64,000 bases of DNA from an uncultured Gemmatimonadales bacterium (GCA_963771275.1 CAVYSW010000009.1:256001-320000), one strand, 5' to 3'; counted from the stretch's first letter, positions 9,372-49,821 are shown. The notes: generated by a model not told the origin, from the sequence alone. Numbers and translations are program-made.

Positions 9372-9399
9372 GTCATCGGCCATCGGCTATCGGCTATCG
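9372..9399. repeat. 7-bp-period tandem repeat, (GCTATCG)x4 degenerate
   Basis: GTCATCG GCCATCG GCTATCG GCTATCG; supplies the kinase stop codon. Confidence 0.7.
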
Positions 9400-12074
9400 G
9401 CCCGGCGGGTGCGCGCACGCAGCTCCGACTTCCAATCATGCACCATGATGACCGCGGCTCCCGCGTCCGCGCTCTTCACGTAGGCGAACCGCCCGCCCTG
9501 CGGAGCGACGTCGTAGTTGGCGTGAAAGCCGAACCCCTGCTCGATGCCGCTCAGGAGGGTGTCACGGGCCGTGACGGCGAACGAGGGTGCGAAGGTCAGC
9601 GACGCCGACATCAACCGCGCACCGTCGAGGTAGAACAGCCGCCTGCCGTCATGCGACCATACCGGCTGGTTGCCCGACTCCAGGGACACCTGATACCGCG
9701 CGTCGAGGGCGGGGAATGGCTTGACGTAGACCTGATAGGTCCCCAGCTCGTCCGACTGATAGGCCACCCACCGGCCGTCGGGCGAGAAGCGCGCGGCGGT
9801 CTGCTGCCCGTCGTTCGCGGCCGCGACGATGTGGGGGAGGGTGTCGCCCCGCAGCCCGCGCACCCAGGTCCGGCCACCCGTGCCCGTGGAATCCCGCTGG
9901 AACAGCAGGTAGGCACCGTCGGCGGAGATCACGCCCTCGTACACGCCCGCGTCCGCCGCCCGGAAGAATTCCCGCGCCGGACGGTTCCCGTCGACCGGCT
10001 GCGTCCACAGCGCGTAGCCGCCGCCCCGATCGGACCGGAACAGCACACTGCGGCTGTCAGGCGTCCATTCGGGCCGGTCATTGACGGACCCCTCGGCGGT
10101 GAGGCGTCGCAGCGGGCCGGATGGGAGGTCCAGGATCCAGATGTCGGCCGACGTCGCGCCGCTGAGGGTTACCGCCAGGTGCCGACCGTCGGGAGAAAAC
10201 CGCGGGTACGAGGGACGCTGGTCTCCCGGGATGAGCGTTTGCCCCTGGCCCGAAGAGCCGGCGAGGACCAGCGGTTGCTGCTCGCTGCCCTGGGCCACAT
10301 ACACCAGCGATCCACTCGGGGACAGGGCGCCCTTGAACACTCCGCCCCCGCCGACGTACACGCCGCTGGCGACGGGAAGCGGCGTCCCGACAACACGCTG
10401 GTGGCGGGCATCGAACCCGACCGCCATGATCGCGCCGGACGCGCTCGCGTACACCAGTTGATCGTCCAGCACCGCCAGGGGGTGGGTGCCGACCAGGTCG
10501 AGCACGTGGGTCGTTCCCCCGGCCAGCGCACCGACCGCGATGCGGGCACCCGCGACCCCCGCCCGCGGCCAGCTCGTGTACAACACCGTTTTCCCGTCGG
10601 GGAGCACCAGCGGCCAGAACTGCAGCAGCTCGCCCCCTGCGGTGTCGATCGATCCCACCACGCGGGGCTCGCCGCCGTTCGCGGGGAGCACCGCCAGCCG
10701 GCCCTGCGCGCTGACCACGATTTGGTCGGCGGTCGCCCAGCTGGCTCCCTGCAGCAGCGGCAGCGACGCCAACGCTAACGGCGTGCCACCTTGCACCGGC
10801 ACCTTCATGAGCTGGGCACCGTTGTAGTAGCCGATCCACCGCCCGTCCGGAGAAAAGAACGGCTGCATCGCGCGATCCGTGCCGGGGAGCGCGTGCGCGG
10901 CAAGCTCGGCCAGGGACCGGACATACAGCTGCCGGTTCCCGCCACCGGCGATGCCGATGTACGCCAGTAGCGTTCCGTCGGGCGACAGGGCGAAGGGGGA
11001 TCCGACGGGGTCCACCCAACGTTCGTTCGCCGCGAAGTTGAGCACAAACCGCACGGGGGTGCGTGCGTCCTCGCGGTGCGGGACCATCCACGACACCGCG
11101 GCGGCGCCGAGCCCCGCTACCGCCAGCGCCGCAAACAGCAGCGTGACGGGGTGACGCAGCGCCTCGGGCCACGGTGCGCGGCGGGCTCGCCCGGGAAAAC
11201 CCCGGCGGGCGGGGCGCGCGGCTCCGGCAGGCGCCGTCGCGTCGGCGTGCAGGGCGTCGGCAAACTCCTGGGCGCTCGCGAAGCGGTCGGCGGGTAGCTT
11301 CTCCAGCGCTCTGAAGACCGCGGCCTCGATATGGGGCGCGACGGTGTGCCGCTGAACCGTGAGGCCGCGGGGCTCGTCCGTGAGCACCTGCGCGATGATG
11401 GCCTGCGCGGTGGGCCCGTTGAACGGCGGCTGGCCCACCAGCATCTCGTAGACCACGCAGCCCAAGGCATACACGTCCGCCTTGCCCGTGACGTCCCGCT
11501 CGCCCATCGCCTGTTCGGGCGCCATGTAGGCGGGGGTGCCGAGGCTCAAGCCTGTCTCGGTGAGCCGGGTGGCGCCGTCGGTGCGGCTCGCCGCCAGGGC
11601 AATGCCGAAGTCGGCCACCACCGCCCGGCCCTCGTGCAGCAGGATATTCTCGGGCTTGATGTCCCGGTGCACCACGCCGTGCCGGTGCGCGTAGTCGAGT
11701 GCGCTCGCCACCTCCGTGGCGATCCGCACCGTCTCGTCGATCGGCAGCTGCTTCTCGCGCAGCAGCCGGTCGCGCAGCGACTCGCCCTCGACGTACGGCA
11801 TCACATAATAGACGAGGCCTTCCACCTCGCCGGAGTCGTGCAGCGGCAGGATGTGCGGGTGCTGGAGGTTGGCGGTGGTCTTGATCTCCTTGAGGAACCG
11901 TTCCGCGCCGAGGATGGCAGCCAGCTCGGCGCGCAGCACCTTGAGGGCCACGCGGCGGTCATGGCGCAGGTCGTAGCCGAGGTACACGACCGCCATGCCC
12001 CCCTGGCCAAGCTCCCGCTCGACACGGTAGCGGCCGGCGAGGGCGGACGAGAGGAGATCCAGGTAGTCGGGCAT
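9387..12074 (-). CDS. Hanks-type Ser/Thr protein kinase with TM segment and TolB-like (PD40) beta-propeller
   Basis: ELGQGGMAVVY, VALKVL, HRDIKPEN, DFG, GTPAYMAPE; repeated FSPDG motifs. Confidence 0.95.
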   Translation of the reverse strand: MPDYLDLLSSALAGRYRVERELGQGGMAVVYLGYDLRHDRRVALKVLRAELAAILGAERFLKEIKTTANLQHPHILPLHDSGEVEGLVYYVMPYVEGESLRDRLLREKQLPIDETVRIATEVASALDYAHRHGVVHRDIKPENILLHEGRAVVADFGIALAASRTDGATRLTETGLSLGTPAYMAPEQAMGERDVTGKADVYALGCVVYEMLVGQPPFNGPTAQAIIAQVLTDEPRGLTVQRHTVAPHIEAAVFRALEKLPADRFASAQEFADALHADATAPAGAARPARRGFPGRARRAPWPEALRHPVTLLFAALAVAGLGAAAVSWMVPHREDARTPVRFVLNFAANERWVDPVGSPFALSPDGTLLAYIGIAGGGNRQLYVRSLAELAAHALPGTDRAMQPFFSPDGRWIGYYNGAQLMKVPVQGGTPLALASLPLLQGASWATADQIVVSAQGRLAVLPANGGEPRVVGSIDTAGGELLQFWPLVLPDGKTVLYTSWPRAGVAGARIAVGALAGGTTHVLDLVGTHPLAVLDDQLVYASASGAIMAVGFDARHQRVVGTPLPVASGVYVGGGGVFKGALSPSGSLVYVAQGSEQQPLVLAGSSGQGQTLIPGDQRPSYPRFSPDGRHLAVTLSGATSADIWILDLPSGPLRRLTAEGSVNDRPEWTPDSRSVLFRSDRGGGYALWTQPVDGNRPAREFFRAADAGVYEGVISADGAYLLFQRDSTGTGGRTWVRGLRGDTLPHIVAAANDGQQTAARFSPDGRWVAYQSDELGTYQVYVKPFPALDARYQVSLESGNQPVWSHDGRRLFYLDGARLMSASLTFAPSFAVTARDTLLSGIEQGFGFHANYDVAPQGGRFAYVKSADAGAAVIMVHDWKSELRARTRRADSR

Positions 12075-12234
12075 GGGCGAGCACGTAAGATGCAATGGAC
12101 CGGGCGCCCCAGCCAGTCGGCGCGTGGGGCGTGCGGCTCAACCCTCACGCGGCCGTTACCGTCCTGTCATCCGGGCGACACGCCAGCCTCACCTTGGTTT
12201 CCCATGTTCGGGATGGCCACAGCGAGGAGCGCCC

Positions 12235-12696
12235 GTGCGCACGATCGCCGGGTCTAACCGGCAGGGTCTCCAACGGGACGTGAACGTCGTCCCGATGATC
12301 GACATTCTCCTGGTCCTGCTGGTCATCTTCATGCTGCTCCAGGAAGGTCGGAAGGTGATCCACCTGCAGCTTCCCCCTGTCTCGCGGGCTGGGATTCCAG
12401 GGCCACAGGTCCCCCCGCAGATCGTCCTCGAGCTCCGCGGGGACGGGTCATACGCCATCAATGGGTCGCTGGTCGCCAAAGCCGTGCTCGGCCGCCGGCT
12501 GCGCGAGCTCTACCTCGAGCGGCCCGTCAAGCTGCTGTTCGTGCAGGCGGCGCCGGGGCGGCGCTTCGAGGACGTGGTCGAGGCCGCGGATATCGCGAAG
12601 GGCGCGGGCGTCCAGGTGATCGGGCTGGTCCCGCGAGCCGACCACGGTCCGGCCGGAGCCGACAGTCGCGCCCTCACCGCGCGACGTAGACCGTGA
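12235..12696 (+). CDS. exbD: ExbD/TolR biopolymer transport protein
   Basis: VNVVPMIDILLVLLVIFM signature; GAGGAG before the GTG start. Confidence 0.85.
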   Translation: MRTIAGSNRQGLQRDVNVVPMIDILLVLLVIFMLLQEGRKVIHLQLPPVSRAGIPGPQVPPQIVLELRGDGSYAINGSLVAKAVLGRRLRELYLERPVKLLFVQAAPGRRFEDVVEAADIAKGAGVQVIGLVPRADHGPAGADSRALTARRRP

Positions 12697-14575
12697 CGTG
12701 TGACGGCGCGGCCGCCGTGCGGTAGATGCGCTGCGTCGCCTTCACGTAGTCCTCCGCGCGGGCCTGGAAGATGTTGGGCACAAACGTCTGCGGGTTGCGG
12801 TCGATGACGGGGAACCAGGAACTCTGCACCTGCACCATGACGCGGTGGCCCGCGCGGAAGGTGTAGTCCTGGGTGTGCAGGTCGATGACGTAGGCCACCA
12901 CCCGGTTCGCGGGAATGGGCGCCGGCTTCTCGTAGCTGTCCCGGTAGCGGCCGCGGAACACCTCGTTGGCCACCATCAGTTGGTATCCGGCCAGACCCCA
13001 CTCCTGAGGGTAGTCCTCGGGATACACGTCGATGAGCTTGACCACCCAATCGGCATCGGTACCGGTGGTGCTGGCGAACAGGTGCGCCTCCAGCCTGCCG
13101 GCGATGGTCAGGTCCTCGGTGAGGGGTGCGCTCTCCCAGCTCAGCACGTCGGCCCGGTCATCCACGAAGCGCTGGTCCTCCAGCAGCCAGGTGTACCACT
13201 GCGAGCCGCCCGGGAAGTAGGTGGCCTGGATGGGCCGGCGGCGATACGGCACCGGGTGCGCCGGGTCGGACACATAGGCGTCATACGCCACCGTGTCGTC
13301 CGTCGCGGGCGGGTCGAACGACAGCTCCTCGTTGGCGCCAAAGTACAGGTTCCGCGCGGTGGTTTCCGCGCGGGGCGGCCAGGCGCTCCAGCGCCGCCAG
13401 CGGTTGCTGCCCGCCTCGAAGGTGAGCGCTTCCTCGACCGGTGGCCCTCCCGTGTCCTTGAGATAGTAGGCGAAGAACGGCGCCTGCACCCGGGCGCGGA
13501 AATACTCCCCGGTGGGGCTGCCGAAGGCGATCGGTCCCAGCGCGCTTCCCTCGCGATTCCACCCGCCGTGGTTCCACGGGCCGACCACGAGGAAGTTCAG
13601 GTGCTTGGTGTCCCGCAGCTCGAGCGTGTCGTAGATGGCGATGGGGCCGTAGAAATCCTCCTGATCCCACCAGCCTGCCACGTTGAGCGTGGGAACGGTG
13701 GGGGTCTTCAGGTAGCGCACGATGGTCTGGCGCTGCCAGAACGCGTCGTAGTCGGGATGCGCCACGTAGTCATTCCAGGTGGGGATCTGGCCGTGCAGGT
13801 GCCGCGCGTTGACATTGGCCAGCGGCCCCAACGAGAGGTACCAGTCGTAGGTGTCGTAGCGGTCGAAGGAGAAGTTCGTGCTGACGCTCGACGTTTCCAT
13901 CCTGGCGGCGTACTCGAAGCCGTAGCTCAGTCGGAAGGCACCGTTGTGATGGAAGTCATCCCCCAGCCACATATCGGCGGGCGAGGCCTGGGGCGAGGCC
14001 GCGCGCAACGCCGGGTGCGGATCGATCAGCGCCATGGCGGTGGTCCAGCCGTCGTAGGACACGCCCAGGATGCCTACCCGCCCGTTGTTGTTCGGCACGT
14101 TGCGGACGAGCCACTCGATGGTGTCGTAGGCGTCGGTGCTCTCGTCGGCGGCCCCGTGCTCCCAGGTGTGGACTGGCGGCCGCTGCATCACGAATGAGCC
14201 CTCCGAGCCGTATCGGCCGCGGATATCCTGGAACGCAAAGATGAACCCCTCGTCCGCCAGCTCCTTGTAGGACGAGCGGAACGCGCCGGCGGCGTCCATG
14301 ACGCCGTAGGGGGTGCGCCGGAACAGGATGGGGAGCGGCCCGGACTGGTCGCGCGGCGCGTAGATCAGCGTGTGCAGTCGCACGCCGTCACGCATGGGGA
14401 TCATCACCTCGCGGGACTCGAACCGGGAATCCTGCGCCGGCTGCTGCGCCCCGCCGATCGCGGGCGGCAGCGAAAGAACCAGCGCCGCGACCGCCCGCAC
14501 AACGCGGTGGGCCGCGCGAGCGGGCGGCCGATCCGGGGGTAGGGAGAATCCGGCGGAACGATGTCCGGCGCGCAT
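12674..14575 (-). CDS. CocE/NonD family hydrolase (alpha-amino acid esterase/glutaryl-7-ACA acylase-like); start uncertain
   Basis: IPMRDGVRLHT, RTPY, QDIRGRYGSEG, GVSYDG, GWWDQED, GPWNHG. Confidence 0.92.
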   Translation of the reverse strand: MRAGHRSAGFSLPPDRPPARAAHRVVRAVAALVLSLPPAIGGAQQPAQDSRFESREVMIPMRDGVRLHTLIYAPRDQSGPLPILFRRTPYGVMDAAGAFRSSYKELADEGFIFAFQDIRGRYGSEGSFVMQRPPVHTWEHGAADESTDAYDTIEWLVRNVPNNNGRVGILGVSYDGWTTAMALIDPHPALRAASPQASPADMWLGDDFHHNGAFRLSYGFEYAARMETSSVSTNFSFDRYDTYDWYLSLGPLANVNARHLHGQIPTWNDYVAHPDYDAFWQRQTIVRYLKTPTVPTLNVAGWWDQEDFYGPIAIYDTLELRDTKHLNFLVVGPWNHGGWNREGSALGPIAFGSPTGEYFRARVQAPFFAYYLKDTGGPPVEEALTFEAGSNRWRRWSAWPPRAETTARNLYFGANEELSFDPPATDDTVAYDAYVSDPAHPVPYRRRPIQATYFPGGSQWYTWLLEDQRFVDDRADVLSWESAPLTEDLTIAGRLEAHLFASTTGTDADWVVKLIDVYPEDYPQEWGLAGYQLMVANEVFRGRYRDSYEKPAPIPANRVVAYVIDLHTQDYTFRAGHRVMVQVQSSWFPVIDRNPQTFVPNIFQARAEDYVKATQRIYRTAAAPSHVTVYVAR

Positions 14576-14729
14576 GGGGTTCGCTCCCGAGCTGGCGGTG
14601 ACGCCTCGACCGGAACGGCTCCGGTCGCTCACGCGCGAAATTACCGCGATGGTGGCGCGGCGGGAATCACGCGGACTCGCCCAGCAGAGTTGGGCCGCTC
14701 GACCCGGCGCTGTCCGGCCCGGAGCGCCC

Positions 14730-15434
14730 TCACTGCTTCGTCACCGCCAACCCCGTGACCAGCCCCTCCGTGTTATGGGCAAACCGGATCCCGTACACGC
14801 CGTCGGTGGACTTGAGCTTGCCGGCGGTCACCAGGGCGGCCTTGTCGTAGCTTCCCACGACGGTGCCGTTGATCGCGCACTCGACCTTGTCCCCCTTGAC
14901 CGAGACCGCGATCTCCTGGGTCACGGGCTCGCCCTGCCCGGCGGCTTTGTGGACCGCCGCGTTCGGCTCGGCGCGCCGCCCGTTCACCTGGAACGGCTCC
15001 GGGCCGAAACCGCGCACGATGAAGCTCCCGTTACCGTACGCGGCGCAGTAGAGGTAGCTCTGCTGATCCGTGCCCAGATCGTTCCCGCCGATCACGATGC
15101 CGTACGGATGGGGATGGTCGTTCAGGCTCATGTACTTGGGCTCGCGGAACGTCGCCTTGACCGTGTAGTTGCCGCTCGCCGTGTTGGCCGGATTCCAGTA
15201 GGTCACGGCGGGACCGGTGGTGACGTGGAGGGCGTCGCCCTCCTTGGCGAGCTTGGCGTCGCTCAGCGTCTGGCCCTGACCGGCCTCCCGGGCGTCGATC
15301 TTGCCCTGCCAGCCCGCCACGGAGATCCCGCCGCCCGCGACGGAGCGGGACGCTTCGGCTTGTTGGGCTGGGGCGGGCCGCGGCGCGAGCAGGATGGCGG
15401 TGGCGACGAGCGCGGAACCGTACGTACGGCGCAT
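14730..15434 (-). CDS. Secreted hypothetical protein (beta-sandwich, DUF1080-like)
   Basis: Signal peptide ending PAPAQQ; typical codon usage; HPHPYG, YLYCAAYGNG. Confidence 0.65.
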   Translation of the reverse strand: MRRTYGSALVATAILLAPRPAPAQQAEASRSVAGGGISVAGWQGKIDAREAGQGQTLSDAKLAKEGDALHVTTGPAVTYWNPANTASGNYTVKATFREPKYMSLNDHPHPYGIVIGGNDLGTDQQSYLYCAAYGNGSFIVRGFGPEPFQVNGRRAEPNAAVHKAAGQGEPVTQEIAVSVKGDKVECAINGTVVGSYDKAALVTAGKLKSTDGVYGIRFAHNTEGLVTGLAVTKQ

Positions 15435-29176: not shown

Positions 29177-29204
29177 ATGGGCCTGAGTGGAGTTGAACCA
29201 CTGA
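29177..29204 (-). repeat. 28-bp duplication of the tRNA-Ile 3' end (att-like)
   Basis: ATGGGCCTGAGTGGAGTTGAACCACTGA is identical to 29755-29782. Confidence 0.95.
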
Positions 29205-29309
29205 GCTCAAGCCGCAGACTGAGCAGAACCGCTGATCTGCGCTGATATGCTCCCACGCGCGTGCCCGGGATGGCACACGCGTCACTCCGGCACCTACCGT
29301 TGACGCGGG

Positions 29310-29678
29310 ATGAGCCCAACGCCCGCCGTCTATGCGCACGCCTCGCTGACCCACCAGATCATCGGTGGCTTCTACGAGGTGACAACGCTCTCGGGGCCGG
29401 CTTCCGTGAAGCGGTGTATGAGCGAGCACTGGCGATGGCGCTTGCGGATCGTCGCCTGAACGTGGAGCGTCAGGTCCCCGTTACCGTGCGGTTCAGGGGA
29501 AGGCGCGCTGGCCTCTTCCGGGCGGACGGTGCTGCTCGAGCTCAAGGCTCTCCCGGCACTCGAGCCGGCTCACGTCACGCAAGTGCTCAACGCGCTTCGC
29601 GCACCCGGACTGCACCTCGGTCTGCTGCTGAACTTCGGTCCGCAGCCACAGGTCAAACGCATTATCCAAAGCCGCTGA
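29310..29678 (+). pseudogene. GxxExxY protein (PD-(D/E)XK nuclease fold) with two frameshifts
   Basis: LTHQIIGGFYEV / NALGAGFREAVYERAL..RQVPV..FRAD / VLLELKA..HVTQVLN..GLLLNFG; breaks near 29382 and 29528. Confidence 0.85.
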
Positions 29679-29755
29679 TGGCGCATAAAGACACAGATGG
29701 ACGCAGATTCGGGCGAGTCTGCGTCCATCAGCGCGTTACAGCGTTATCTGCGGAA

Positions 29756-29830
<75 letters not shown>

Positions 29831-29921: not shown

Positions 29922-30161
29922 CTATTCCCATTCGCCGCGCCGCTTGCCGGGCTTGGGCCCTTCCGCCTCGTCCCAGTCCTCCTCGATCTCGTCGTAATCC
30001 TCGTATTCGTCCTCGTCGACCTCTTCCTCGTCTTCGTCGTAGTCGTACTCGTCCTCGTCAAGCTCCTCGTCCTCCTCGAAGTCGTCGACATCGTCCTCGT
30101 TCTCGTCGTCATAGCGTGCGGCGACGACTCGCGACGAAACCGACGGATCCCAGGGCCACAT
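29922..30161 (-). CDS. Small, highly acidic hypothetical protein (79 aa)
   Basis: GGAGG RBS before ATG; 41 of 79 residues are D/E. Confidence 0.75.
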   Translation of the reverse strand: MWPWDPSVSSRVVAARYDDENEDDVDDFEEDEELDEDEYDYDEDEEEVDEDEYEDYDEIEEDWDEAEGPKPGKRRGEWE

Positions 30162-30215: not shown

Positions 30216-32141
30216 CTACGCTTCAGCGGCCGTCTTGGCGGCCCGCTGCGCCTTCTTCCGATCCGAGACGCCGAGCGTGCGCTTCCGCAGCCGGATCGCG
30301 GCCGGCGTCACCTCGATCAGCTCGTCCTCCTCGATGTACTCGAGCGCGAGCTCGAGCGTGATCTCGCGCGGCGGCTCCAGACGCAACGCCTCGTCCGAGG
30401 CCGTCGTGCGCATGTTCGAGAGCTTCTTCTCCTTCGTGATGTTCACGTCCATGTCGCCGACCCGCGCGTTTTCCCCGACGATCATCCCGCCGTACACCGG
30501 GTCACCCGGACGCACGAACATCTGCGCGCGCTCCTGCAGGTTGAAGATGGCGAAGGCCACCGCCACCCCCTCCCGGTCCGCCACCAGTACCCCGCGCTTC
30601 CGCCCCGCCAGGGGCCCGGCCCAGGAGTCGTAGCGCAGGAACCGGTGGTGCATGATCCCCTCGCCGCGCGTATCCGTCAAGAAGTCGGACCGATAGCCAA
30701 ACAGGCCCCGGCTCGGGATCGCAAACTGCATCCGCGTCTTCCGGTGGCCCATCGGCTTCATCGCCATGAGCTCGCCGTGCCGCGGACCGAGCTTCTCGAT
30801 CACGGTCCCGACCATGTCCTGGGGCACCTCCACCGACAGCTCCTCGTACGGCTCCAGCCGCTGGCCGTCCGCCGCGTCCTTCGTGATCACCCGCGGCCGA
30901 CTCACCTGGAACTCATACCCCTCGCGCCGCATCGTCTCCATCAGGATCGAGAGGTGGAGCTCCCCGCGCCCCGACACCGTGAGCGTGTCGGGCCGATCGG
31001 TATCCTCTACCCGGAGCGCCACGTTTCGCTCCAGCTCGTGGAACAGGCGGTCCCGCACCTGCCGCGACGTCACGAACCGCCCCGCCCGCCCCGCGAACGG
31101 GGAGTTGTTGACCGAGAAGTCCACCGAGATCGTCGGCTCCTCCACCGCGATCCCCGCCAGCCGCTCCGGCACGTCCGGGTCGACGATGGTCTTCCCGATC
31201 TCGATCCCCTCGAGCCCCGCCAGAGCCACGATCTCACCCGCGCCGGCCTCGGCGATCTCGACCCGGTGCAGGCCGTCGAAGCCGTACAGCCGCCCCGCCC
31301 GGGCCCGCTCCCCCTCGGCCGCATCCGCCATCCCCACAGGCCCCAGCGGGAGCAGCAGCACGTCCTGCCCCACCCGGATCCGGCCCCGCTCGATCCGCCC
31401 GATCGCGATCCGCCCCAGGTACGACGAGTAGTCCACCGTCGAGATCAGCATCTGGAGCGGCCCGGCGGGGTCCCCCGTGGGCTCCGGAATCGCGTCGAGA
31501 ATCGCCCGGAACAGCGGCTCCAGATCCCCCTCCATCCCTCCCCCGTCCGCCACTCCTGCCGCTCCTGCCGCTGCTGCCGCCCCGGCCGCTCCGGCCGCCC
31601 CGCGTCCCCACCCGTCCGGCAGCGCGCGCGACGACACGCCGTAGCGCGACGAGGCGTAGATGAACGGCGCGTTGAGCTGCGCGTTCGTCGCCTCCAGGTC
31701 CATGAACAGCTCGAGCACCTCGTCGTGCACCACGAGCGGACGCGCGTCAGGCCGATCGATCTTGTTGATCACGACGATGGGCTGCAGCCCCAGCTCCAGC
31801 GCCTTGCGCGTCACGAACCGCGTCTGCGGCATCGGCCCCTCGGCGGCATCCACCAGGAGCAGCACACCGTCCACCATCCGCAGGATGCGCTCGACCTCGC
31901 CCCCGAAATCGGCGTGCCCCGGCGTATCCACGATATTGATCTTCGTGTCTTTCCAGTGTACCGCCGTATTCTTGGCCAGTATCGTAATGCCGCGCTCGCG
32001 CTCGAGCGGGTTGGAATCCATCACGCGCTCCTCCACCTGCTCATTCGCCCGGAAGACGCCCGCCTGGCGGAGCATCTTGTCGACCAGCGTCGTCTTGCCG
32101 TGATCGACGTGCGCGATGATGGCGATGTTGCGCAACGACAC
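30216..32141 (-). CDS. typA: Translational GTPase TypA/BipA
   Basis: [46 protein letters not shown]. Confidence 0.98.
31545..31598. repeat. 9-bp-period repeat in-frame in typA
   Basis: TCCTGCCGC TCCTGCCGC TGCTGCCGC CCCGGCCGC TCCGGCCGC. Confidence 0.75.
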
Positions 32142-33140: not shown

Positions 33141-34063
33141 GCGGGCCTCGCCGTCGCCCGCCGGCCGGCGAGCCGCACGGCCAGCTCCACCGCCGCGCGC
33201 AGCGAGCTTGGGTCGGCGATCCCCTTCCCCGCGATGTCCAGGGCCGTGCCGTGATCCGGCGCCGTGCGCACGAACGGCAGGCCCAGCGTCACGTTCACGG
33301 CGTGGCCGAACGCGGCCACCTTGATGGCCGTCATCCCCACGTCGTGATACGGCGCCAGCACGGCGTCGAACTCGCCCCTGAGTGCCCGCACGAACACAGT
33401 GTCCGCGGGGAGCGGGCCGGCGGCGCCGAGCGCCCGGGCCGCGGGGGCGAGCACCGCCGCGTCCTCGGATCCGAATAGGCCCGCCTCACCGGCATGCGGG
33501 TTGAGCGCGCAGACCGCGAGCCGCGGCGCGTCGAGCCCCCACCACTCGCGCAGCGCCGCGCGCGTGACCGCGCCGACCCGCTCCACCAGCCCGCGGGTCA
33601 GCGCGTCGGGCACGGCCCGCAGCGGCAGGTGCGTCGTCACCAGCACCACGCGCAGCCGCTCGTCGGTGAGCATCATCGCGACGTCCACGCCGCCCGCGAG
33701 CGCCGCGAGCCACTCGGTGTGGCCCGGGTAGGGAATGCCGGCAAGGTGGAGCGCGTGCTTCTCGGCGGGCCCCGTGACGATGGCGTCGACCTCACCGGCG
33801 AGCGCGAGGGCAACGGCGGTTTCGATCTGGGACTTCACCAGGAGACCAGCGTCGCGGGGGGAGCCGGTGAAAAGTGAAAAGTGAAAAGTGAAGCCACCGC
33901 TCCTTTCACTTTTCACTTTTCTCTTTTCACTCGTCTCACGTCCATCCACGTCGAGCACCACGTACTCCGCCCCCTCCGGGAGCCCGGCGGCGAGCACCTT
34001 GTCGACGATCTCGGGACCGATGCCGCGGGGATCGCCGGGCGTGATGGCGACGCGGGGGCGCAC
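33137..34063 (-). CDS. pdxA: 4-hydroxythreonine-4-phosphate dehydrogenase PdxA (start approximate)
   Basis: ITPGDPRGIGPEI, GHTE, LNPHAGE, YHDVG, VNVTLGLPFVRTAPDHGTA. Confidence 0.95.
   Translation of the reverse strand: MRPRVAITPGDPRGIGPEIVDKVLAAGLPEGAEYVVLDVDGRETSEKRKVKSERSGGFTFHFSLFTGSPRDAGLLVKSQIETAVALALAGEVDAIVTGPAEKHALHLAGIPYPGHTEWLAALAGGVDVAMMLTDERLRVVLVTTHLPLRAVPDALTRGLVERVGAVTRAALREWWGLDAPRLAVCALNPHAGEAGLFGSEDAAVLAPAARALGAAGPLPADTVFVRALRGEFDAVLAPYHDVGMTAIKVAAFGHAVNVTLGLPFVRTAPDHGTALDIAGKGIADPSSLRAAVELAVRLAGRRATARPA
33867..33930. repeat. AT-rich heptamer palindrome in-frame in pdxA
   Basis: (GTGAAAA)3GTGAA, 12 nt, TTCAC TTTTCAC TTTTCTC TTTTCAC; 25 of 26 bp pair. Confidence 0.95.
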
Positions 34064-36859: not shown

Positions 36860-39800
36860 TCACGTCGCCGGGACCGGCCGTTGGACCGCCGATCCGTCTG
36901 TCTCGCCGAGGGCGGTCCGCAGCGCGCGGACCAGCCCGTCTCCCATCGCCAGCCCGCCCAGCCGCGTCAGCCGGAGCGACAGCGGCACCGCGCGCCGCAC
37001 GTCGGCGGCGAACTGCACTTCGTCCAGCGCGGCGGTGAGGCCCGCCAGCCGCGGGCTGGCGCCCGCCCGAAACGTAAGCCGCGCCTCGTCACCCCGGACC
37101 AGAATCGTCTCCAGTCCCAGCCGGGCGCCAAGCGCGCGGAGTTCCGCAATGAGGAGGAGGCGGTCGGCTTCGGTGGGCAGCGGGCCGAACCGATCCCGCA
37201 GCTCCTCGCGTACGAGTGCAATCTCGCCAACTTGCGTGGCCCGCGCCAGCCGCCGGTACAGGTCGAGCTTCGCGTCTTCGTCGGGCACGTACGCGTCGGG
37301 CAGGTGCGCGCCGCCCTCGAAGGTGACGTCGGGCGGCAGCAGGCCCCCCTCGGACTCCCCCCTGAGCGCCCGCACGGCGTCCCCGAGCCAGCGCAGGTAG
37401 GTGTCCACCCCCACCGCGTGCGCGTGGCCCGACTGCTCCGCGCCGAGCAGGTTGCCGGCACCGCGCAGCTCGAGATCGCGCAGGGCGATGCGGTAGCCGG
37501 AGCCGAGCGCCGTGTGGTGCTCCAGCACGCGGAGCCGCTCCTCGGCGTCGCGATCGACCTGCTCCGGGGCGAGGAGATAGCAGTACGCCCGGCGATGCGC
37601 CCGGCCGACGCGCCCGCGCAGCTGGTACAGCTGCGCGAGCCCGAACTGCCCCGCGTTGTGCACCACCATGGTGTTCGCGTTGGGCACGTCGAGGCCCGAT
37701 TCCACGATCATCGTGGAGACCAGCACGTCCACCGCGCCCGCCACGAACCGCCGCATCACGTTCTCCAGCTCCCGCTCGCGCATCTGCCCGTGCGCCACCG
37801 CGACCCGCGCCCGCGGCGCGAGGGCCCGCACCCGCTCGCCCACCGTCGCAATCGTCTCGATCCGGTTGTGGACGAAATACGCCTGGCCGCCGCGGTCCAG
37901 CTCGCGCGCGAGCGCTTCCTCCAGCAGCCCGTCATCCCACGGCTCGACGAACGTCAGCACCGGCGACCGGTCGCGCGGCGGCGTCTCGATCAGCGTGAGA
38001 TCGCGCAGGCCGGACATCGCGAGGTGCAGCGTGCGCGGGATCGGCGTCGCCGTGAGCGTGAGCACGTCGACCTGCAGCCGCAGCGCCTTGAGCCGCTCCT
38101 TGTGCCGCACGCCGAAGCGGTGCTCCTCGTCCACGATCAGCAGTCCGAGATCGCGGAACCGGACGTCGCCGGACAGCAGGCGGTGGGTCCCGATCACCAC
38201 GTCCACCGCTCCGTCCGCGAGGCCGCGCAGCACCGCGGCCTGCTCCGCCGCCGTGCGGAAGCGCGACAGCACCTCGACGCGCACCGGAAAATCGGCGAGT
38301 CGCTCGGCGAACGTGCGGCCGTGCTGCTCCGCGAGAATCGTCGTGGGGACGAGCACCGCCGCCTGCTTGCCGGCCTGCACCGCCTTGAAGGCGGCGCGCA
38401 CCGCGACCTCGGTCTTGCCGTATCCCACGTCGCCCACGATCAGCCGGTCCATCGGGCGCGGCAGCTCCATGTCGCGCTTCACGTCGTCGGTCGCCGTGCG
38501 CTGGTCCGCCGTGTCCTCGTAGAGAAACGACGATTCCAGCTCGCGCTGCCACTTCGCGTCGGGTGGGAAGGCGTAGCCCACCGTGACCGCGCGTCGCGCG
38601 TACAGCTCCACCAGCTCGGCCGCCATCTGGCGGATCGCGCGCTCGGTCCGCTCGCGCTGGCGCCGCCAGCGCGTGCCCCCGAGCCGGTCGAGCCGCGGCG
38701 GCGGGCGGTCCCCGCCCTCGTCGGGCGCGCGATACCGCTCGATCTGGTCGATCCGGTAGAGCGGCACGTTCAGCCGATCGCCGCCCTCGTACTCGATGAT
38801 CGCGACCTCGAGCACCGTCCCCTCACCGACTGCGATCCGCTGGATGCCGCGGTAGATCCCGATGCCGTGCTCGAAGTGGACCACGTAGTCGCCGGGCGAG
38901 AGTGGACTCGCGGCGGTCTCGAGCGCCTGCCGGAAGCGCCGCGCCCGGCGAATCCGGCGGGCGCGGCGGAAGATCTCGTGGTCGGTGAGGACCGTGAGAT
39001 CGGGCAGCACGAACCCGCCCTTGAGCGCCCCGAGCGCCAGCGTGACCGTGGCCGGCAGGCGCGGGCCGCCGGCGTCGGCCGGGCCGAGGATCTCCTCGAG
39101 CCGCTCCAGCTGGCCCTCGTTGTCGCACAGGATCAGCGTGGGACCGGCGCGCACGAGCCGCTGCAGCCGGCGCATGTCGCGCTCCACCGACTCGGGCGCG
39201 AACACCCGGAAATCGTGGGCGCCCTCGACCTCCAGGAGCTCGAGCCGCGCGAGCCGGTCCCACGCCCCGCGCCACGCCTCGGGCGTCACGAACACCGTCT
39301 CGCGCCCCGGCACGTCCTCCCCCATGCGCCGCGCCACCTGAACGTGGTGCGCCGCCTCGTCCCACACGCGCTGGACCTCGGCGGGCGTCACGCCATCGTC
39401 CACGAACACCAGCGTGTCGGCGGGCAGCACGTCGAGCAGCGTGTCGGCCCTCACCCCACCCTCTCCCCCAGCCCCTTCCGCCCCTTCTGCCGCCCCGGTC
39501 ACGGGGAGCACCGTCACCCGCCCGACCTCGCCCTCCGAGCGCTGCGTGTCGAGATCGAACGCGCGAATCGAGATGATCTCGTCCCCCCACCACTCGATGC
39601 GGGCCGGCGCCGCCATGCCGAATCCGTAGACGTCGAGCAGGCCGCCGCGCACGGCGAACTGCGCCACGTCCGTGACCGACGGGACGCGCGCGTAGCCCAT
39701 GCGCTCGAGCCGCGCGATCACGTGGCCCGGCCGGTCCGTGTCCCCCCTCGCGAGCTCGAGCCGGGCCCGCGCGATCGCGGCCGGCATGCGGGTCCGCTCC

Positions 39801-42898: not shown

Positions 42899-42930
42899 CG
42901 CAACGGCTTCCGACCCAGCGGTCGATATCT

Positions 42931-44266: not shown

Positions 44267-44288
44267 GGCGACGCCTCACGCAGATCCC

Positions 44289-44322
44289 GACGGGCGGGCC
44301 CAGCGGCCCGCCCGTCTTGTTT
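44289..44322 (+). terminator. Rho-independent terminator
   Basis: GACGGGCGGGCC-CAGC-GGCCCGCCCGTC then TTGTTT. Confidence 0.85.
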
Positions 44323-44386
44323 GGACCCGCGCGCGTTATCTTCCCGCCGTCCGCTCGGCCCGAACCCCTTCAGGAGACGTTCGCCG

Positions 44387-45910
44387 ATGCGCTCGCTCGC
44401 TCTCGTGCTGCTCGCTCTCGGTCTTCCCGCGCTGGCCGCGGCCCAGGATGGCGTGGCCCGGGCGGCCGCGGCCATCACGCCCCGGGACATCGCGGCGCGG
44501 ATCGGCGTCATCGCGCACGATTCGATGCGGGGCCGTGAGACGCCAAGCCCCGAGCTCGACAAGGTGGCGGCGTACATCGCCGGGGAATTCCGCCGGTTCG
44601 GGCTCGCGCCCGGCGGCGACGCGGGCACGTTCATCCAGCACTACGCCATCGAGCGCACGCAGCTCGACACGGCGGCGTCCAGCATCGCCGTGCGCGGCGG
44701 GCCGACGATCCGGTTTGGCGCGGGCGCGGTCACGCAGCGCGGCGGCTACGCACCGGACGGAGTGACGGGCCCCGTGGTGCTCGTGTCGGGGACCGCCGCG
44801 ACGCCGGAGGACGCGGCGCGGCTCGACGTCAAGGGCAGGGTCGTCATCGCGGTCGTGCCGACCGACGCCACCGGGCAGCCCACTGCTGCCGGGCGAACAC
44901 TGCTCGCGGGACTCGCCCGCGGCGCGCCGGTCGCGCTCCTCGTGGCGACGAGCGCGCGGAACGAGACCTGGCGGGAGATGGTCCGCCTCGAGCTGAGCAC
45001 CCGCATGGACGTGCCGTGGCGCGAAGGCGACGGCCCGCCCATGGTGCTCGTCCGCGACCGCGCGCTGGCGCCGGTGCTGCGGCGCGCCGGTGTCGACATC
45101 GCGGCGGCCCGGCGGGCCGCGCCGCCCACCGCGCGAGCGCTTCCCGGCCTCGGCCTTACGGTGACGGTCAAGGCGCGGGTACTCGAGGCGATGCGCGCCC
45201 CCAACGTCGTGGGCGTGCTCGAGGGCGGCGATCCCGCGCTCAGGCAGGAGTACATCGTGCTCAGCGCTCACATGGACCACGTGGGGACGGCGGGGACGGG
45301 CCGCTGCCGGGCGCAGGGTGCGGACTCGATCTGCAACGGCGCGGACGACGACGCGTCCGGCACGATCGCCGTGGTGGAGGCGGCGCAGGCGTTCGCCATG
45401 CTGCAGCCGCGGCCGAAGCGCTCGCTCATCTTCCTCACCGTGAGCGGCGAGGAGCGCGGGCTCTGGGGGAGCGACTACTTCGCGTCACATCCGCCGGTGG
45501 CGATCGACCGGATCGTGGCGGACCTGAACATGGACATGGTCGGCCGCAACTGGAAGGACACAATCGTCGTGATCGGGAAGGAGCACTCGGATCTGGGCAG
45601 CACGCTCGCCGCGGTGAGCGCGCGCCACCCCGAGCTCCACATGGCGGCGATCGACGACCTCTGGCCAGCCGAGGCGTTCTACTTCCGCTCGGACCACTAC
45701 AACTTCGCGCGCCGCGGCGTGCCGATTCTATTCTTCTTTAACGGCACGCACCCCGACTACCACCGGCCGAGCGACGAGGTCGCCAAGATCGACGCGGAGA
45801 AGGAATCCCGCATCGTGCAGCTCGTCTTCTACCTGGGCGTCGAGCTGGCCGACACGGCGGAGAAACCGAAGTGGAATCCTGAGAGCTACCGCCAGATCGT
45901 GGGGCGCTGA
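44387..45910 (+). CDS. M28 family metallopeptidase, secreted
   Basis: SAHMDH, NGADDDASG, GEERGL, NMDM, RSDH, DYH. Confidence 0.93.
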   Translation: MRSLALVLLALGLPALAAAQDGVARAAAAITPRDIAARIGVIAHDSMRGRETPSPELDKVAAYIAGEFRRFGLAPGGDAGTFIQHYAIERTQLDTAASSIAVRGGPTIRFGAGAVTQRGGYAPDGVTGPVVLVSGTAATPEDAARLDVKGRVVIAVVPTDATGQPTAAGRTLLAGLARGAPVALLVATSARNETWREMVRLELSTRMDVPWREGDGPPMVLVRDRALAPVLRRAGVDIAAARRAAPPTARALPGLGLTVTVKARVLEAMRAPNVVGVLEGGDPALRQEYIVLSAHMDHVGTAGTGRCRAQGADSICNGADDDASGTIAVVEAAQAFAMLQPRPKRSLIFLTVSGEERGLWGSDYFASHPPVAIDRIVADLNMDMVGRNWKDTIVVIGKEHSDLGSTLAAVSARHPELHMAAIDDLWPAEAFYFRSDHYNFARRGVPILFFFNGTHPDYHRPSDEVAKIDAEKESRIVQLVFYLGVELADTAEKPKWNPESYRQIVGR

Positions 45911-45916
45911 CGCGAG

Positions 45917-45990
45917 TGCAGATGGCAGATTGAAGATCGCAGGTTGGAGATTGGAGACCGCCCGACTCCCGATCTGCAAGCTGCCATCCT
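45917..45990. repeat. Degenerate 7-bp-period palindromic repeat between convergent genes
   Basis: TGCAGAT GGCAGAT TGAAGAT CGCAGGT TGGAGAT TGGAGAC, then inverse-like CTCCCGA TCTGCAA GCTGCCA TC. Confidence 0.7.
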
Positions 45991-45993
45991 CTT

Positions 45994-47397
45994 CTAGCGT
46001 GAGCTCAGCTCCTTCACGAGCCGGGAGAGAAACTCCTGCCCCTCGAAGAACGCCGTGACGCCGATCCGCTCGTCGCGGCCGTGCGCGCGGGTGTCGCCGA
46101 TCTCCTCGAACAGCCCCGACACGCCGTAGGTCGGAATCCCGGCGTTCCGGAGATAGAGGCCGTCGGTGGCGCCCGTCACCATCGTGGGCACCACCGGGAC
46201 CCCGGGCCACATCGCCTGCGTCACGCGTTCGACAGCGCCGAGTACTTCCGGCAGCAGCGGCGAAGCCGCGCTCGGCTTGGCCGCGGCGATTGGTGAGACG
46301 CTGATGGCGGAGTCGGCAAGCACACGCACCAGCGTCGCCTGGACCGAGTCGGGGACCTCGCCCGGGAGCAGCCGGCAGTTGACCGTGGCCCGGGCCGTCT
46401 GGGGCAGCGCGTTCTCGGCGTGTCCCGCGGCGAGCATCGTCGGGATACAGGTGGTCCGCATCAGGGCGTTGTAGTAGGGCTCCACCGCGAGACGCGCCAC
46501 CGCACCGGGATCCGGCGTGTCGCCCGCGGCGACCGCGCGCATGACCTCGCCCTGCGCGCCGCCCGCGATCGCCCCCATCCGCTGGAAGAACGCGCGCGTC
46601 GTCTCGGTGAGCCGCACCGGGAACTGATACGCCGAGAGCCGGGTGAGCCCGGCGGCGAGCCGGTAGATCGCGTTGTCGGGCCGCGGCAGCGAGCTGTGCC
46701 CGCCGCTGTTCCGCACCTCGAGCGTGAAGCTCAAGTACACCTTCTCGCTCGTCTGGAGCTCGTTCAGCACCCGCTTGCCGTCCTCGAGCTCGCCCCCGCC
46801 CCCTTCGTTCAGCGCGTACGCGGCGTCGATCAGGTCCCGGTGCGTCCGCAGCAGCCAGTCCACGCCGTTCGCGTCGCCGCCCTCCTCGTCCGCCGTGAGC
46901 GCCACGATGAGATCGCGGTCGGGAGCGAATCCCTGCTCCTTGAGCAGGATGAAGCTCGCGATCCAGATCGCGGCCATCGCCTTGTCGTCGCTCGTGCCGC
47001 GGCCGTAGAAGTAGCCGTCCCGCTCCAGGAACGTGAACGGATCGACCGACCAGTCCGCTCGGAGCGCCTCGACCACGTCGAGATGGGCGAGCAGCAGCAG
47101 CGGCGGCCTGGTACCGCGCCCGCGATAGCGGGCGACCAGATTCCCGTGAACGGAATCCGGGCCGAGCACGTGGACGTCACCCGCCGGAAACCCCGCGGCG
47201 CGGAGCCGGGCCGCCATCGCCTCCGCGGCCGCGGTCGTGTTGCCGCTCGAGTGCGTCGTGTTGATCTCGATCAGCTGGGCAAAGACGTCGCGAGCGAGCT
47301 GCCGCGCGTGGGGCAGCCGGGCGTCCTGCCCGGTCACCGCGCGCGGCGCGCCGAGGGCGATCGCGCCGAGGAGAACGAGAACGGAGTGGTTGCGCAT
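45994..47397 (-). CDS. M20/M25/M40 family metallo-hydrolase, secreted
   Basis: LAHLDVV, GRGTSDDK, ADEE, NEGG, GGHSS, AHGRDER. Confidence 0.93.
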   Translation of the reverse strand: MRNHSVLVLLGAIALGAPRAVTGQDARLPHARQLARDVFAQLIEINTTHSSGNTTAAAEAMAARLRAAGFPAGDVHVLGPDSVHGNLVARYRGRGTRPPLLLLAHLDVVEALRADWSVDPFTFLERDGYFYGRGTSDDKAMAAIWIASFILLKEQGFAPDRDLIVALTADEEGGDANGVDWLLRTHRDLIDAAYALNEGGGGELEDGKRVLNELQTSEKVYLSFTLEVRNSGGHSSLPRPDNAIYRLAAGLTRLSAYQFPVRLTETTRAFFQRMGAIAGGAQGEVMRAVAAGDTPDPGAVARLAVEPYYNALMRTTCIPTMLAAGHAENALPQTARATVNCRLLPGEVPDSVQATLVRVLADSAISVSPIAAAKPSAASPLLPEVLGAVERVTQAMWPGVPVVPTMVTGATDGLYLRNAGIPTYGVSGLFEEIGDTRAHGRDERIGVTAFFEGQEFLSRLVKELSSR

Positions 47398-47502
47398 GGC
47401 CGGACAACATACCCGGCACCGACCCGGCGCGCGAGGTGCACGCGGCCGTCGCCCCGTGGCGGGCGCCGGGACATGTCGGCATCTTCCAGCGAGTGCCATC
47501 TG

Positions 47503-47548
47503 TTCTGCACCCTGCATTCTGCGTTCCGCGTTCTGCGTTCTGCGTTCT
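47503..47548. repeat. 7-bp-period tandem repeat, (TTCTGCG)x6 degenerate
   Basis: TTCTGCA CCCTGCA TTCTGCG TTCCGCG TTCTGCG TTCTGCG TTCT, just before a GGAGG RBS. Confidence 0.8.
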
Positions 47549-47560
47549 TTCGGAGGTCGT

Positions 47561-49753
47561 ATGCTGCGGCTTCTCTCGATCGCGATGCTCGTCTGGACCC
47601 TGCCGGCCGCCTCGCTCGGCGCCCAGCAGCGCACGTTCGCCGGCCACTGGACCGGCACGCTCACCATCCAGGGACAGGAGCTGGGGTTCGACCTGGATCT
47701 CGCCCAGGGCGCGAGCGGCTGGACCGGCGACATCTCGATCCCGGCGCAGGGGGCTACGGATCTCCCGCTCGTGGGCATCACGGTCGCCGGAGACAGCATC
47801 AGCTTCGCCATCGCCGGCATTCCGGGAGACCCGACGTTCCGCGGGGCCCGCTCCCAGGATGGCACGACCGTCCAGGGCACGCTCACGCAGGGCGGGCAGA
47901 GCTTCACATTCTCCATGCGGACCGGCGGCGCCGCGGCGGCCCAGGCGCCGCAAGGCGATTTCGAGTACTTGCGCGCCCACTACACGAAGCAGGAAGTCCT
48001 GATCCCGATGCGGGACGGCGTGAAGCTGTTCACGTCGATCTACGCGCCGACCGATACGACCCGGCGCCACCCGATCATCTTCCAGCGCACCCCCTACAGC
48101 GTGGCACCGTACGGGGCGGGGCGCTTCCCGCCGTTCCTCGGCAACCAGGTCCGGGCCTACATGCGCGAGGGCTACGTCATCGTGCGGCAGGACGTGCGTG
48201 GCCGCTACATGTCGGAAGGCGAGTTCGTCAACGTGCGGCCGTACGTTACCGACAAGCGCGGCCCCCAGAGCATCGACGAGACGACCGATACATACGATAC
48301 GATCGACTGGCTGCTCCAGAACGTGAAGGGCAACAACGGCCGGGTGGGGATCAGCGGGATCTCGTACGGCGGGTTCTACTCCTCGATGGGGGCGATCGAC
48401 GCCCACCCGGCCGTGAAGGCCGTCTCCCCGCAGGCGCCGGTGTCGGCGTGGATGCACGGCGACGACTTCTTCCACAACGGCGCGCTGCTGCTGCCGCATG
48501 CGTTCGACTTCTTCGCCTGGTTCGGCCACCCGCGGCCTGCGCCCAAGAACACGCCCGACCCGCCGCTCGACCACGGCACGCCGGACGGCTACGCGTACTA
48601 CCTGCGGCTCGGCGCCCTCTCCAACGCGAACGCCAAGGTGCTGCACGACAGCGTGGCGTTCTGGAACGAGATGGCGGAGCATTGGCACTGGGACGCGTTC
48701 TGGCAAGCGCGCGACGTGCTGCCCCACCTCAAGGCGTTGAAGCCCGCCATGTTGTGGGTGGGTGGCTGGTTCGACACGGAGAACCTGTGGGGCGCGCTCC
48801 ACGCCTATGGCGCCGCCGAGCGCCAGAGCGCCGGCGCCACCAACCGCCTGGTGATGGGCCCGTGGTCCCACGGGCAGTGGGGCTGGAGCCGGGGCGACTC
48901 GCTCGGGCCGATCGCGTGGGGCTCGGCCACGGGGGAGTTCTATACCGACAGCATCGAGGTCCCGTTCTTCAACTACTACCTGCTGGGCGACGGCCAGCCC
49001 AAGCCCCGGGAGTTCGAGGCGGCCGTGTTCGAGACCGGCGCCGACCAGTGGCACTTCATGGACGTGTGGCCACCGCCCACCACCGCGACCAGCCTCTACC
49101 TGCGGGACGGCGGCACGCTCACCTACGACGCGCCGGCTGGGAAGGCGCCCGCCTACGACCAGTACGTGAGCGATCCGGCCAAGCCCGTGCCGTACACGGC
49201 CGAGATCACCCAGTGGTACGACCCGCCGTTCATGCTGGAGGACCAGCGCTTCGCCTCACGCCGGCCGGATGTCCTGGTGTACGAGACCGCGCCGCTCGCG
49301 AGCGCCCTCACGATCGCGGGCCCGATTCCGGTCGAGCTCTCGGTCTCCACCACGGGCACCGACTGCGACTGGATCGTGAAGCTGATCGACGTGTTCCCCG
49401 ACACGCTCGGCTCGGGCCGCGGCGGACGCGTCAAGCTGGGCGGCTACCAGATGCTGGTGCGGGGCGACGTGCTGCGCGGGAAGTTCCGCAACAGCCTGTC
49501 GCAGCCGGAGCCGTTCGTCCCGGGCGCCGTGACGCCCGTCCGGTTCGTGCTGAACGACGTGTTCCACACGTTCAAGCCCGGGCACCGGATCATGATCCAG
49601 GTGCAGAGCACCTGGTTCCCGATGATCGACCGCAATCCCGGCAAGTTCATGGACATCTTCCGGGCGAAGGACGCGGACTTCCAGCAAACGACGCAGCGCG
49701 TCTACCGCTCGGCGGGGAGCGCGTCGCACGTGGTGCTGCCGGTGATGAAGTAG
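47561..49753 (+). CDS. CocE/NonD family hydrolase with an extra N-terminal beta domain
   Basis: IPMRDGVKLFT, RTPY, GISYGG, GGWFDTEN, GPWSHG; ~100 aa extra N-terminal domain. Confidence 0.93.
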   Translation: MLRLLSIAMLVWTLPAASLGAQQRTFAGHWTGTLTIQGQELGFDLDLAQGASGWTGDISIPAQGATDLPLVGITVAGDSISFAIAGIPGDPTFRGARSQDGTTVQGTLTQGGQSFTFSMRTGGAAAAQAPQGDFEYLRAHYTKQEVLIPMRDGVKLFTSIYAPTDTTRRHPIIFQRTPYSVAPYGAGRFPPFLGNQVRAYMREGYVIVRQDVRGRYMSEGEFVNVRPYVTDKRGPQSIDETTDTYDTIDWLLQNVKGNNGRVGISGISYGGFYSSMGAIDAHPAVKAVSPQAPVSAWMHGDDFFHNGALLLPHAFDFFAWFGHPRPAPKNTPDPPLDHGTPDGYAYYLRLGALSNANAKVLHDSVAFWNEMAEHWHWDAFWQARDVLPHLKALKPAMLWVGGWFDTENLWGALHAYGAAERQSAGATNRLVMGPWSHGQWGWSRGDSLGPIAWGSATGEFYTDSIEVPFFNYYLLGDGQPKPREFEAAVFETGADQWHFMDVWPPPTTATSLYLRDGGTLTYDAPAGKAPAYDQYVSDPAKPVPYTAEITQWYDPPFMLEDQRFASRRPDVLVYETAPLASALTIAGPIPVELSVSTTGTDCDWIVKLIDVFPDTLGSGRGGRVKLGGYQMLVRGDVLRGKFRNSLSQPEPFVPGAVTPVRFVLNDVFHTFKPGHRIMIQVQSTWFPMIDRNPGKFMDIFRAKDADFQQTTQRVYRSAGSASHVVLPVMK

Positions 49754-49755
49754 CA

Positions 49756-49821
49756 GCGGCAGAAGTGGCAGCGGCGGCAGAGGGGAGGATCACCCGCTGC
49801 CGCTCCTGCCGCCCCTGCCGC
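49756..49821. repeat. 9-bp-period palindromic repeat between convergent genes
   Basis: GCGGCAGAA GTGGCAGCG GCGGCAGAG ... CTGCCGC TCCTGCCGC CCCTGCCGC. Confidence 0.75.

Follow-up and report, generated by a model that had tools for sequence, protein, structure and literature searches.

Short-period repeat arrays in a Gemmatimonadales genome and their likely origin in four-helix-bundle gene cassettes

A 64,000-nucleotide stretch of DNA from an uncultured Gemmatimonadales bacterium (the window; G000:C9:256001-320000) contains arrays of degenerate 7- and 9-bp units, lying between genes or in frame within core genes such as typA, pdxA and mfd, and raises the question of where repeats of fixed period and changing unit come from. 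The source genome, G000, is 3.86 Mb in size, with a GC content of 70% and a completeness of 96.7%; its 3358 genes were called with a model of our own (87% coding), and the genes of the window were named by Pfam. The main repeat types match the arms around genes for four-helix-bundle proteins (PF05635) of the same genome, and these resident mini-cassettes are therefore the likely source of this widespread, long-unexplained kind of bacterial repeat. The order of a unit and its reverse complement within hairpins defines the left and the right arm throughout.

Five PF05635 matches were found in G000, four of them intact and the fifth without arms. Each of the four intact genes, all located outside the window, is flanked by a left array and its inverse, and each pairs with a different one of four heptamer families defined de novo, so that heptamer arrays and PF05635 proteins correspond almost one to one. 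The left array is repeated downstream of the gene in two of these cassettes. A sixth copy, detected with a profile of our own, is broken and lies between main-family 9-mer arms 2 kb apart. One of the four-helix proteins matches TIGR02436 and XCC0516 (PDB 2GSC), and the best named match of one is a Gemmatimonadaceae record. The neighbours of the cassettes are protein genes, with no rRNA gene. The arms cluster around their cassettes: the cognate family occupies 11 of the 15 other heptamer loci within 15 kb of a cassette (null 3.8), and adjacent heptamer loci belong to the same family in 32 of 54 pairs (null 14.1). Because four proteins are matched to four families, binding and mobility could be tested directly with built-in non-cognate controls. 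Around one cassette (L134:7200-17300) arrays stand at nearly every gene junction, which leaves individual host genes enclosed by arms in the manner of cassettes within an array.

The preliminary description of the window expected such arrays to exceed shuffled controls, and genome-wide counts agree. With the mean of five codon-block shuffles of the genome as chance control, period 7 gave 96 arrays versus 0.0, period 8 gave 9 versus 0 and period 9 gave 18 versus 0.4; periods 5, 10, 11 and 13 gave 0-1 arrays each. The de novo scan detected 243 arms (162 7-mers, 19 8-mers and 62 9-mers) at 173 sites. The 7-mer arms form four chain-linked families of 49, 49, 34 and 27 arms, with 3 others, and 81 of the 162 have an inverted partner within 120 bp versus none of 810 random positions. 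The paired 7-mer arms share one order in every family (32:0, 18:0, 12:0 and 19:0; 81/81), and the order is 3:1 in the 8-mer and 3:0 in the 9-mer family. A more sensitive set of arms contains 63 left-right, 18 same-direction and two right-left neighbours, both right-left cases involving 9-mers. Two families meet at 14 of the 173 sites, a number not clearly above chance (null mean 7.3, maximum 17); the orientation alone stands out, with 13 of the 14 in the order left(A)-right(B). Nineteen of the 62 9-mer arms belong to no family, and some in-gene 9-mers are probably ordinary amino-acid repeats.

Most of the 7-mer arms (145/162) are intergenic, and 48 of these (33%) lie at convergent junctions versus a background of 13%. 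Within 25 nt of a stop codon, 83 of 159 heptamer arms are placed in the left-arm sense and 7 in the opposite sense; 32 of the 83 contain the stop codon, and the bias arises partly because a 7-mer array holding a stop triplet soon ends any frame. Hairpin loops are 8-63 bp long and mutually unrelated save for one pair, which belongs to a whole gene-less element present at two unrelated loci with arms and loop shared. An in-frame heptamer hairpin lies within the alanyl-tRNA synthetase gene alaS (L134:13831-16557; G000:C4:15920-16018). Similar in-gene inserts were observed at G000:C6:14974 and C10:798737, in genes whose peptides read by eye as FtsK-like and RsmA-like. The rarA/mgsA gene (L134:6451-7864; G000:C4) falls into two frames that divide exactly where a heptamer arm lies, through either a real break or an assembly error. 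In a tRNA cluster (G000:C3:437886-438290), an 8-mer hairpin follows tRNA-Met and a heptamer arm follows tRNA-Pro.

The association extends beyond G000. In a sample of 151 genomes from the phylum, 100 contain PF05635, and the expectation that four-helix-bundle genes are bracketed by inverted arrays was borne out at 54 full-flank loci (26 from the genus and 28 from the top 30 phylum matches): 32 have inverted arms, 16 one arm, one a direct copy only and five none, versus inverted arms at 0 and one arm at 19 of 226 control loci. Across phyla, 80 loci were fetched, 74 of them with full flanks, of which 22 show inverted arms and 23 one arm; 40 of the 49 arm units are 7-mers. Four PF05635-negative genomes, chosen out of 51 because they have few contigs (two belong to other families and two have a lower GC content), yielded one low-complexity 7/8-mer arm in 388 kb, versus 26-149 arms per Mb in six genomes of the genus that carry PF05635, a density that includes cassette arms and comes from samples leaning to cassette contigs. 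Non-cassette arms match the cassette units of their own genome best in G000 (126/233, next 51), G004 (15/38, next 9) and G006 (5/14, next 3). Shared units occur only in protein pairs of more than 60% identity (5/9). The length of the unit tracks the protein tree (6 changes versus 15.8 shuffled; length sharing 0.52 to 0.81), although kin have labels in common.

All seven arrays reported for the window are present. The arms at and around them are as follows (window coordinates):

9327..9361, plus strand: left arm of heptamer family 3, decayed, lying upstream of the point where a minus-strand metallo-hydrolase gene starts (by eye, under the scan thresholds)
9374..9402, plus strand: right arm of heptamer family 1, about 4 units
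31549..31602, minus strand: 9-mer left arm of about 6 units, in frame in the typA loop
33867..33892, plus strand: in-frame left arm within pdxA, heptamer family 0
33904..33937, plus strand: right (inverse) arm of the pdxA hairpin
39462..39495, minus strand: weak 9-mer left arm, in frame in mfd
45917..45957, plus strand: left arm of a minor heptamer type, 7 bp past a stop, between convergent peptidase genes
45964..45988, plus strand: degenerate right arm of the 45917 hairpin
47505..47548, plus strand: single right arm of a minor heptamer type, 12 bp ahead of the start of an S15 peptidase gene
49752..49780, plus strand: 9-mer left arm, beginning at the stop of the S15 peptidase gene
49797..49822, plus strand: 9-mer right arm, ending at the stop of a convergent S9 peptidase gene

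The statement that the arrays are often followed by their inverse holds for three of the seven, the hairpins at 33867 in pdxA (fold z -9.2), 49756 (z -6.1) and 45917 (z -2.3); the arrays at 9372, 31549 in typA, 39462 in mfd and 47503 are single arms (fold z above -0.6). The 9374..9402 arm includes the stop codon of a minus-strand Ser/Thr kinase gene, which ends at 9387, and with the decayed arm before it the 9372 site reads by eye as a two-family hybrid. The mfd array is weak, with 2.3 copies.

Comparisons with relatives showed that units are exchanged at fixed sites. The pdxA hairpin is absent in G001 and G002, whose loop region is 21-22 codons shorter, and the pdxA loop ranges from 56 to 90 residues across the loci compared. 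The TypA loop has 40 residues in G000 versus 14 in distant relatives; of 29 loci it was read in 17, and it has 14 residues in seven. The typA insert is in frame in every case: a 9-mer arm in G000, another 9-mer in G004, a single 8-mer arm in G005, 8-mer hairpins of two types in G001, G002 and G006, and a 7-mer hairpin in G020, a member of another family. By eye, the typA units of G002, G004 and G005 equal units of their own cassettes. For mfd, which was read at 12 of 19 loci, an 8-mer hairpin occurs in G001 and G002 and none in G003-G006. Loops of the conserved proteins TypA, Mfd, PdxA and AlaRS are thus refilled with different repeat-derived peptides within one genus. The junction at 45917 holds a different heptamer arm in G006, a 9-mer hairpin in G005 and no array in G001, G002 and G004; the ends of the S15 peptidase gene (47503 and 49756) are not syntenic in five congeners. 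A contig of G001 (C145), probably foreign, holds second, more distant copies of typA and pdxA.

The empty and gene-filled orthologous sites anticipated for relatives exist. At orthologous junctions that have an array in G000, the relative also has one in 5 of 21 cases, four with another unit, versus 19 of 533 otherwise (Fisher p 0.001). Three clean empty sites are shorter by 79-85 bp. Whole hairpins are also swapped at orthologous junctions. One site bare in G000 is gene-filled in all six congeners, and at another a cassette gene in G003 stands where G000 has a gene-less hairpin of another unit. The cassette at G000:C3:141987 has 7-mer arms in G000; at this site G003 has cassettes with 8-mer arms and another protein. 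The G000 and G003 proteins were rejected as one clade by the approximately unbiased (AU) test (p-AU 2e-51), with a group set by synteny but after a tree had been seen and with the long rows L094, L107 and L108 omitted; this indicates that gene and arms were replaced together. Between strains, the typA array is one unit longer or shorter, showing slippage in unit number, and the pdxA hairpin of one strain has 7 of its 11 loop bases changed with the arms intact. At G000:C3:548652-547682 and C3:1726918, other small genes, toxin-antitoxin-like by eye, occupy places where relatives carry a cassette, so that the junctions act as slots for accessory genes.

A GxxExxY gene in the window, named in the preliminary description as a neighbour of related units, occupies an insert of 578 bp whose borders are tRNA-Ile and a duplicate of the tRNA's 3' end:

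29177..29204, minus strand: 28-bp duplicate of the tRNA-Ile 3' end, the left border of the 578-bp insert
29211..29247, plus strand: weak hairpin of GxxExxY-type units, upstream of the gene (z -0.6, no better than shuffles)
29310..29678, plus strand: GxxExxY gene (TIGR04256/PF13366), broken by two frameshifts
29680..29754, plus strand: downstream hairpin of degenerate 9-11-nt units (z -4.6)
29756..29829, minus strand: tRNA-Ile(GAT), the insert site

The downstream hairpin stands above shuffles and the upstream one does not; the gene itself is broken, and its arms were found nowhere else in the genome, which speaks against this gene as the source of the listed arrays. Neither the gene nor the duplicated tRNA end was seen at the orthologous spot in G001, G002, G005 and G006; in G005 and G006 the tRNA-Ile end carries a clear single 8-mer arm, and the GxxExxY family was found in two of seven congeners. 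The locus is a dying cassette of a parallel kind, perhaps the remnant of a larger island. In G004 (L128/L133; G004:C3:1640-4800) a 45-bp copy of the tRNA-Ile end, 3.1 kb away from the tRNA itself, marks another small island at this site, and in G006 (L129; G006:C101) a gene-less hairpin of GxxExxY-type units was seen by eye ~300 bp from tRNA-Ile. Between tRNA-Ile and typA, the window also has a small acidic low-complexity ORF (29922-30161).

Other proposed drivers fared no better. The DUF559 gene is single and followed by one palindromic hairpin of the opposite order, separate from the arrays and with none of its own. The RAYT-like gene has its own repeat of single palindromes in 16 copies, two of them near arrays, and these arrays are absent from the flanks of all three PF01797 genes of G000. 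The Y1 (RAYT-like) gene at G000:C7:18121-18654 lies between two copies of this separate REP-like repeat (16 genome matches); an 8/9-mer hairpin at C11:103291 holds one copy of the repeat in its loop. The twin copies of IS110 lie in another repeat.

In the mechanism that we favour, which we give about an even chance, arms are copied from the cassettes; the protein serves as a scaffold for binding, host enzymes carry out the reactions, and nesting and erosion leave single arms and hybrids. It would start from a cassette with a four-helix-bundle gene between a left tandem array and an inverted right array. The protein, a likely non-catalytic nucleic-acid-binding pentamer, may bind its own arms. 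Host repair or recombination enzymes would copy these arms into nearby tolerant spots, favouring existing hairpin loops, and the gene-less hairpins and single arms would be such copies spread through the chromosome. Older arms would erode to single arms and two-family hybrids, always left before right, and selection would retain copies that lie at the end of a gene, many of them providing its stop codon, or that keep the frame within a variable loop of a protein.

Several observations weigh against the cassettes as source or against this route. The DNA of the relatives is a sample of 2-15%, in part picked on cassette-bearing contigs, and local clustering could stem from block transfer between strains. 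Across phyla, 29 of the 74 full-flank four-helix loci have no arm. The match to own-genome units fails in G002 (4/20 versus 7 for the units of G003) and gives a tie in G001 and G005, and the minor units at 45917 and 47503 have no cognate cassette among those found. Across sites, protein identity shows no correlation with the unit (rho -0.02, p 0.34), which speaks against a protein-to-unit code across sites. No catalytic mobility gene was found in or beside the cassettes among the families searched (PF01797, PF02371 and PF00078), and reverse transcriptase gave no PF00078 match in the 96.7% complete G000. Hardly any loop is shared, and no further occurrence of a cassette leader was seen in G000; nor were internal-deletion derivatives of cassettes found in this genome. 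The arrays had been taken for footprints of small mobile cassettes: the tie to four-helix cassettes stood, and movement of whole elements is only weakly indicated, with 2 of 25 hairpins (one pair) sharing a loop and no target duplication found at hairpins (5-mers 1/25, null 1.3).

Some of the same evidence can be read otherwise. The four-helix protein might be a host RNA- or DNA-binding regulator, with the arrays as selected gene-end sites and the flanks of its own gene as autoregulation. The cognate match of families to genes, the absence of arrays from PF05635-negative genomes and the one-sided placement past stops agree with this, as does the interpretation of paired 7/8-mer arrays in Geobacter as regulator sites in the available part of that report (PMC2700814). 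However, the sites are not conserved (16 of the 21 orthologous junctions have no array), the typA and mfd loops change their unit within coding sequence, the arrays cluster in cis around cassettes and one of them breaks the rarA frame, which makes a regulon rather unlikely. Plain slippage repeats with fold-back inversion, retained as terminators around passenger genes, would explain the single-unit gains and losses between strains and the enrichment at convergent junctions. However, slippage accounts neither for shared families and a single polarity nor for the pairing of each cassette with one family or the lack of arrays in PF05635-negative genomes, and of the readings set out here it is the least probable.

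Arms might also be written directly. A host polymerase would write an arm 5'-to-3' on a broken DNA end from a cassette template held by an Avd-like protein, and the ends would be rejoined, so that hairpins, single arms and hybrids are direct products and not decay states. The absolute left-then-right order, the polarity of the two-family sites (whose neighbours are still adjacent in a relative for three of four testable), the unique loops without target duplication, the strain with a changed pdxA loop between unchanged arms, and a unit whose sequence is independent of protein identity while its length follows the protein all fit such writing. Against it, no reverse transcriptase was found in G000, nested insertion with erosion predicts the same order (a nested case lies at G000:C6:34668), one element was copied together with its loop, and the sensitive set holds two right-then-left neighbours, both with 9-mers; we consider it unlikely. 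Somewhat less likely still is a further step, in which stand-alone Avd-like four-helix proteins are repeat writers in the fashion of telomerase, each holding its own arm as template and setting the period (7, 8 or 9) with which a host polymerase writes units onto DNA ends. If this were true, the heptamer arrays found throughout the bacteria would originate in repeat-writing, which would also supply core proteins with new loops. Under homing-like conversion, hairpin loops would be cut in trans, either by GxxExxY or by a hairpin nuclease of the host, and repair from another array or cassette would swap the unit in place. The whole-hairpin swaps at the same junctions, the cassette replacement at one site, the hypervariable loops and the GxxExxY gene with its own arms in the window speak for it. 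However, the sole GxxExxY gene of G000 is broken and its arms have not spread, the family is patchy among congeners, and conversion creates no new sites; this explanation is very unlikely. Copying of arms from resident cassettes remains our preferred reading.

The arrays themselves, which the preliminary description took as undescribed, are already in print (PMC4692102, PMC2700814), as are repeats of Beggiatoaceae (PMC4679880), and the available part of a survey of 7006 genomes ranks tandem heptamers as the commonest intergenic tandem class, with no clear clue to function (PMC6344855). Heptamer arrays of Xanthomonas and Nostoc (Rehm et al. 2015, PMC4692102) have ~4 units and lie on the sense strand just past stops or antisense before starts; the Xanthomonas pairs are inverted in one order (19/19 in rows 1-74 of the 186 of S2 Table A), arrays occur inside purL, mraW, murG and ftsQ, and other repeat types serve as partner. 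For XCC0516, a four-helix gene, row 15 of that table gives a 4-unit array 6 nt after bccP, over the annotated start, with no partner listed. Unit number, placement, pair order, in-gene copies and mixed partners are thus common to both, as far as the available part of that paper goes. It describes one G-rich unit, interpreted as a G-quadruplex, and reports no link to mobile elements there, whereas the units of G000 are several, many of them unable to form a G4, and they are linked with cassettes and exchanged between relatives. Geobacter metallireducens has several families of multicopy elements with four or five tandem 7-/8-mers, paired on opposite strands, between and within genes; unlike in G000, they are interpreted as regulator sites, and the available part of the report does not mention a four-helix link (PMC2700814). 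The arrays of G000 are of the Xanthomonas/Geobacter type, with 3-6 degenerate 7-mers above chance, mostly intergenic, in one pair order and on the sense strand after stops. No literature linking four-helix or GxxExxY genes to genome-wide arrays was found among mostly open papers, the Xanthomonas table and the Geobacter report being covered in part. New here are the match of families to cassettes, the clustering in cis, the negative genomes, the polarity of hybrids and the turnover of units in several genes.

Rickettsia palindromic elements (RPEs) are read through in frame in housekeeping genes but are ~150 bp long with a conserved peptide, according to the available part of the source (PMC10969869). 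In-frame insertion in pdxA, typA, mfd and alaS resembles this, whereas the elements of G000 are tandem arrays of 30-130 bp without a conserved peptide. In the REP/RAYT system, many short, mostly extragenic palindromes are enriched between convergent genes and tied to a small gene that they flank, and a REP is a single conserved palindrome of 20-40 nt. The short palindromes of G000 share the extragenic placement, the convergent enrichment and the tie to a small flanked gene; however, their arms are tandem arrays, their loops are unique and their partner is not a Y1 transposase. Terminal inverted repeats, for the paired half of the arms, recall MITEs (miniature transposable elements with inverted repeats), which differ in the target-site duplication and homogeneous copies that are missing here (one shared loop pair among the 25 hairpins, no leader remnants). 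Avd of diversity-generating retroelements is a related four-helix pentamer that handles a nucleic-acid template. It co-occurs with reverse transcriptase in those elements, in the part of the study available (10.1101/2021.01.26.428298), unlike the Avd-like genes of G000, which have no reverse transcriptase beside them. An anatomical likeness is seen in the ORF-bearing intervening sequence of Coxiella 23S rRNA, which carries a four-helix ORF in its stem and upstream tandem heptamers of strain-variable number and is sporadic; the available part of that paper describes the PF05635 proteins as solved in structure and not known in function (PMC4990558). Similarly, the PF05635/TIGR02436 ORF of G000 is enclosed by inverted repeats with tandem heptamers. 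However, the cassettes of G000 lie between or inside protein genes, occur several times per genome and are accompanied by about 170 gene-less sites.

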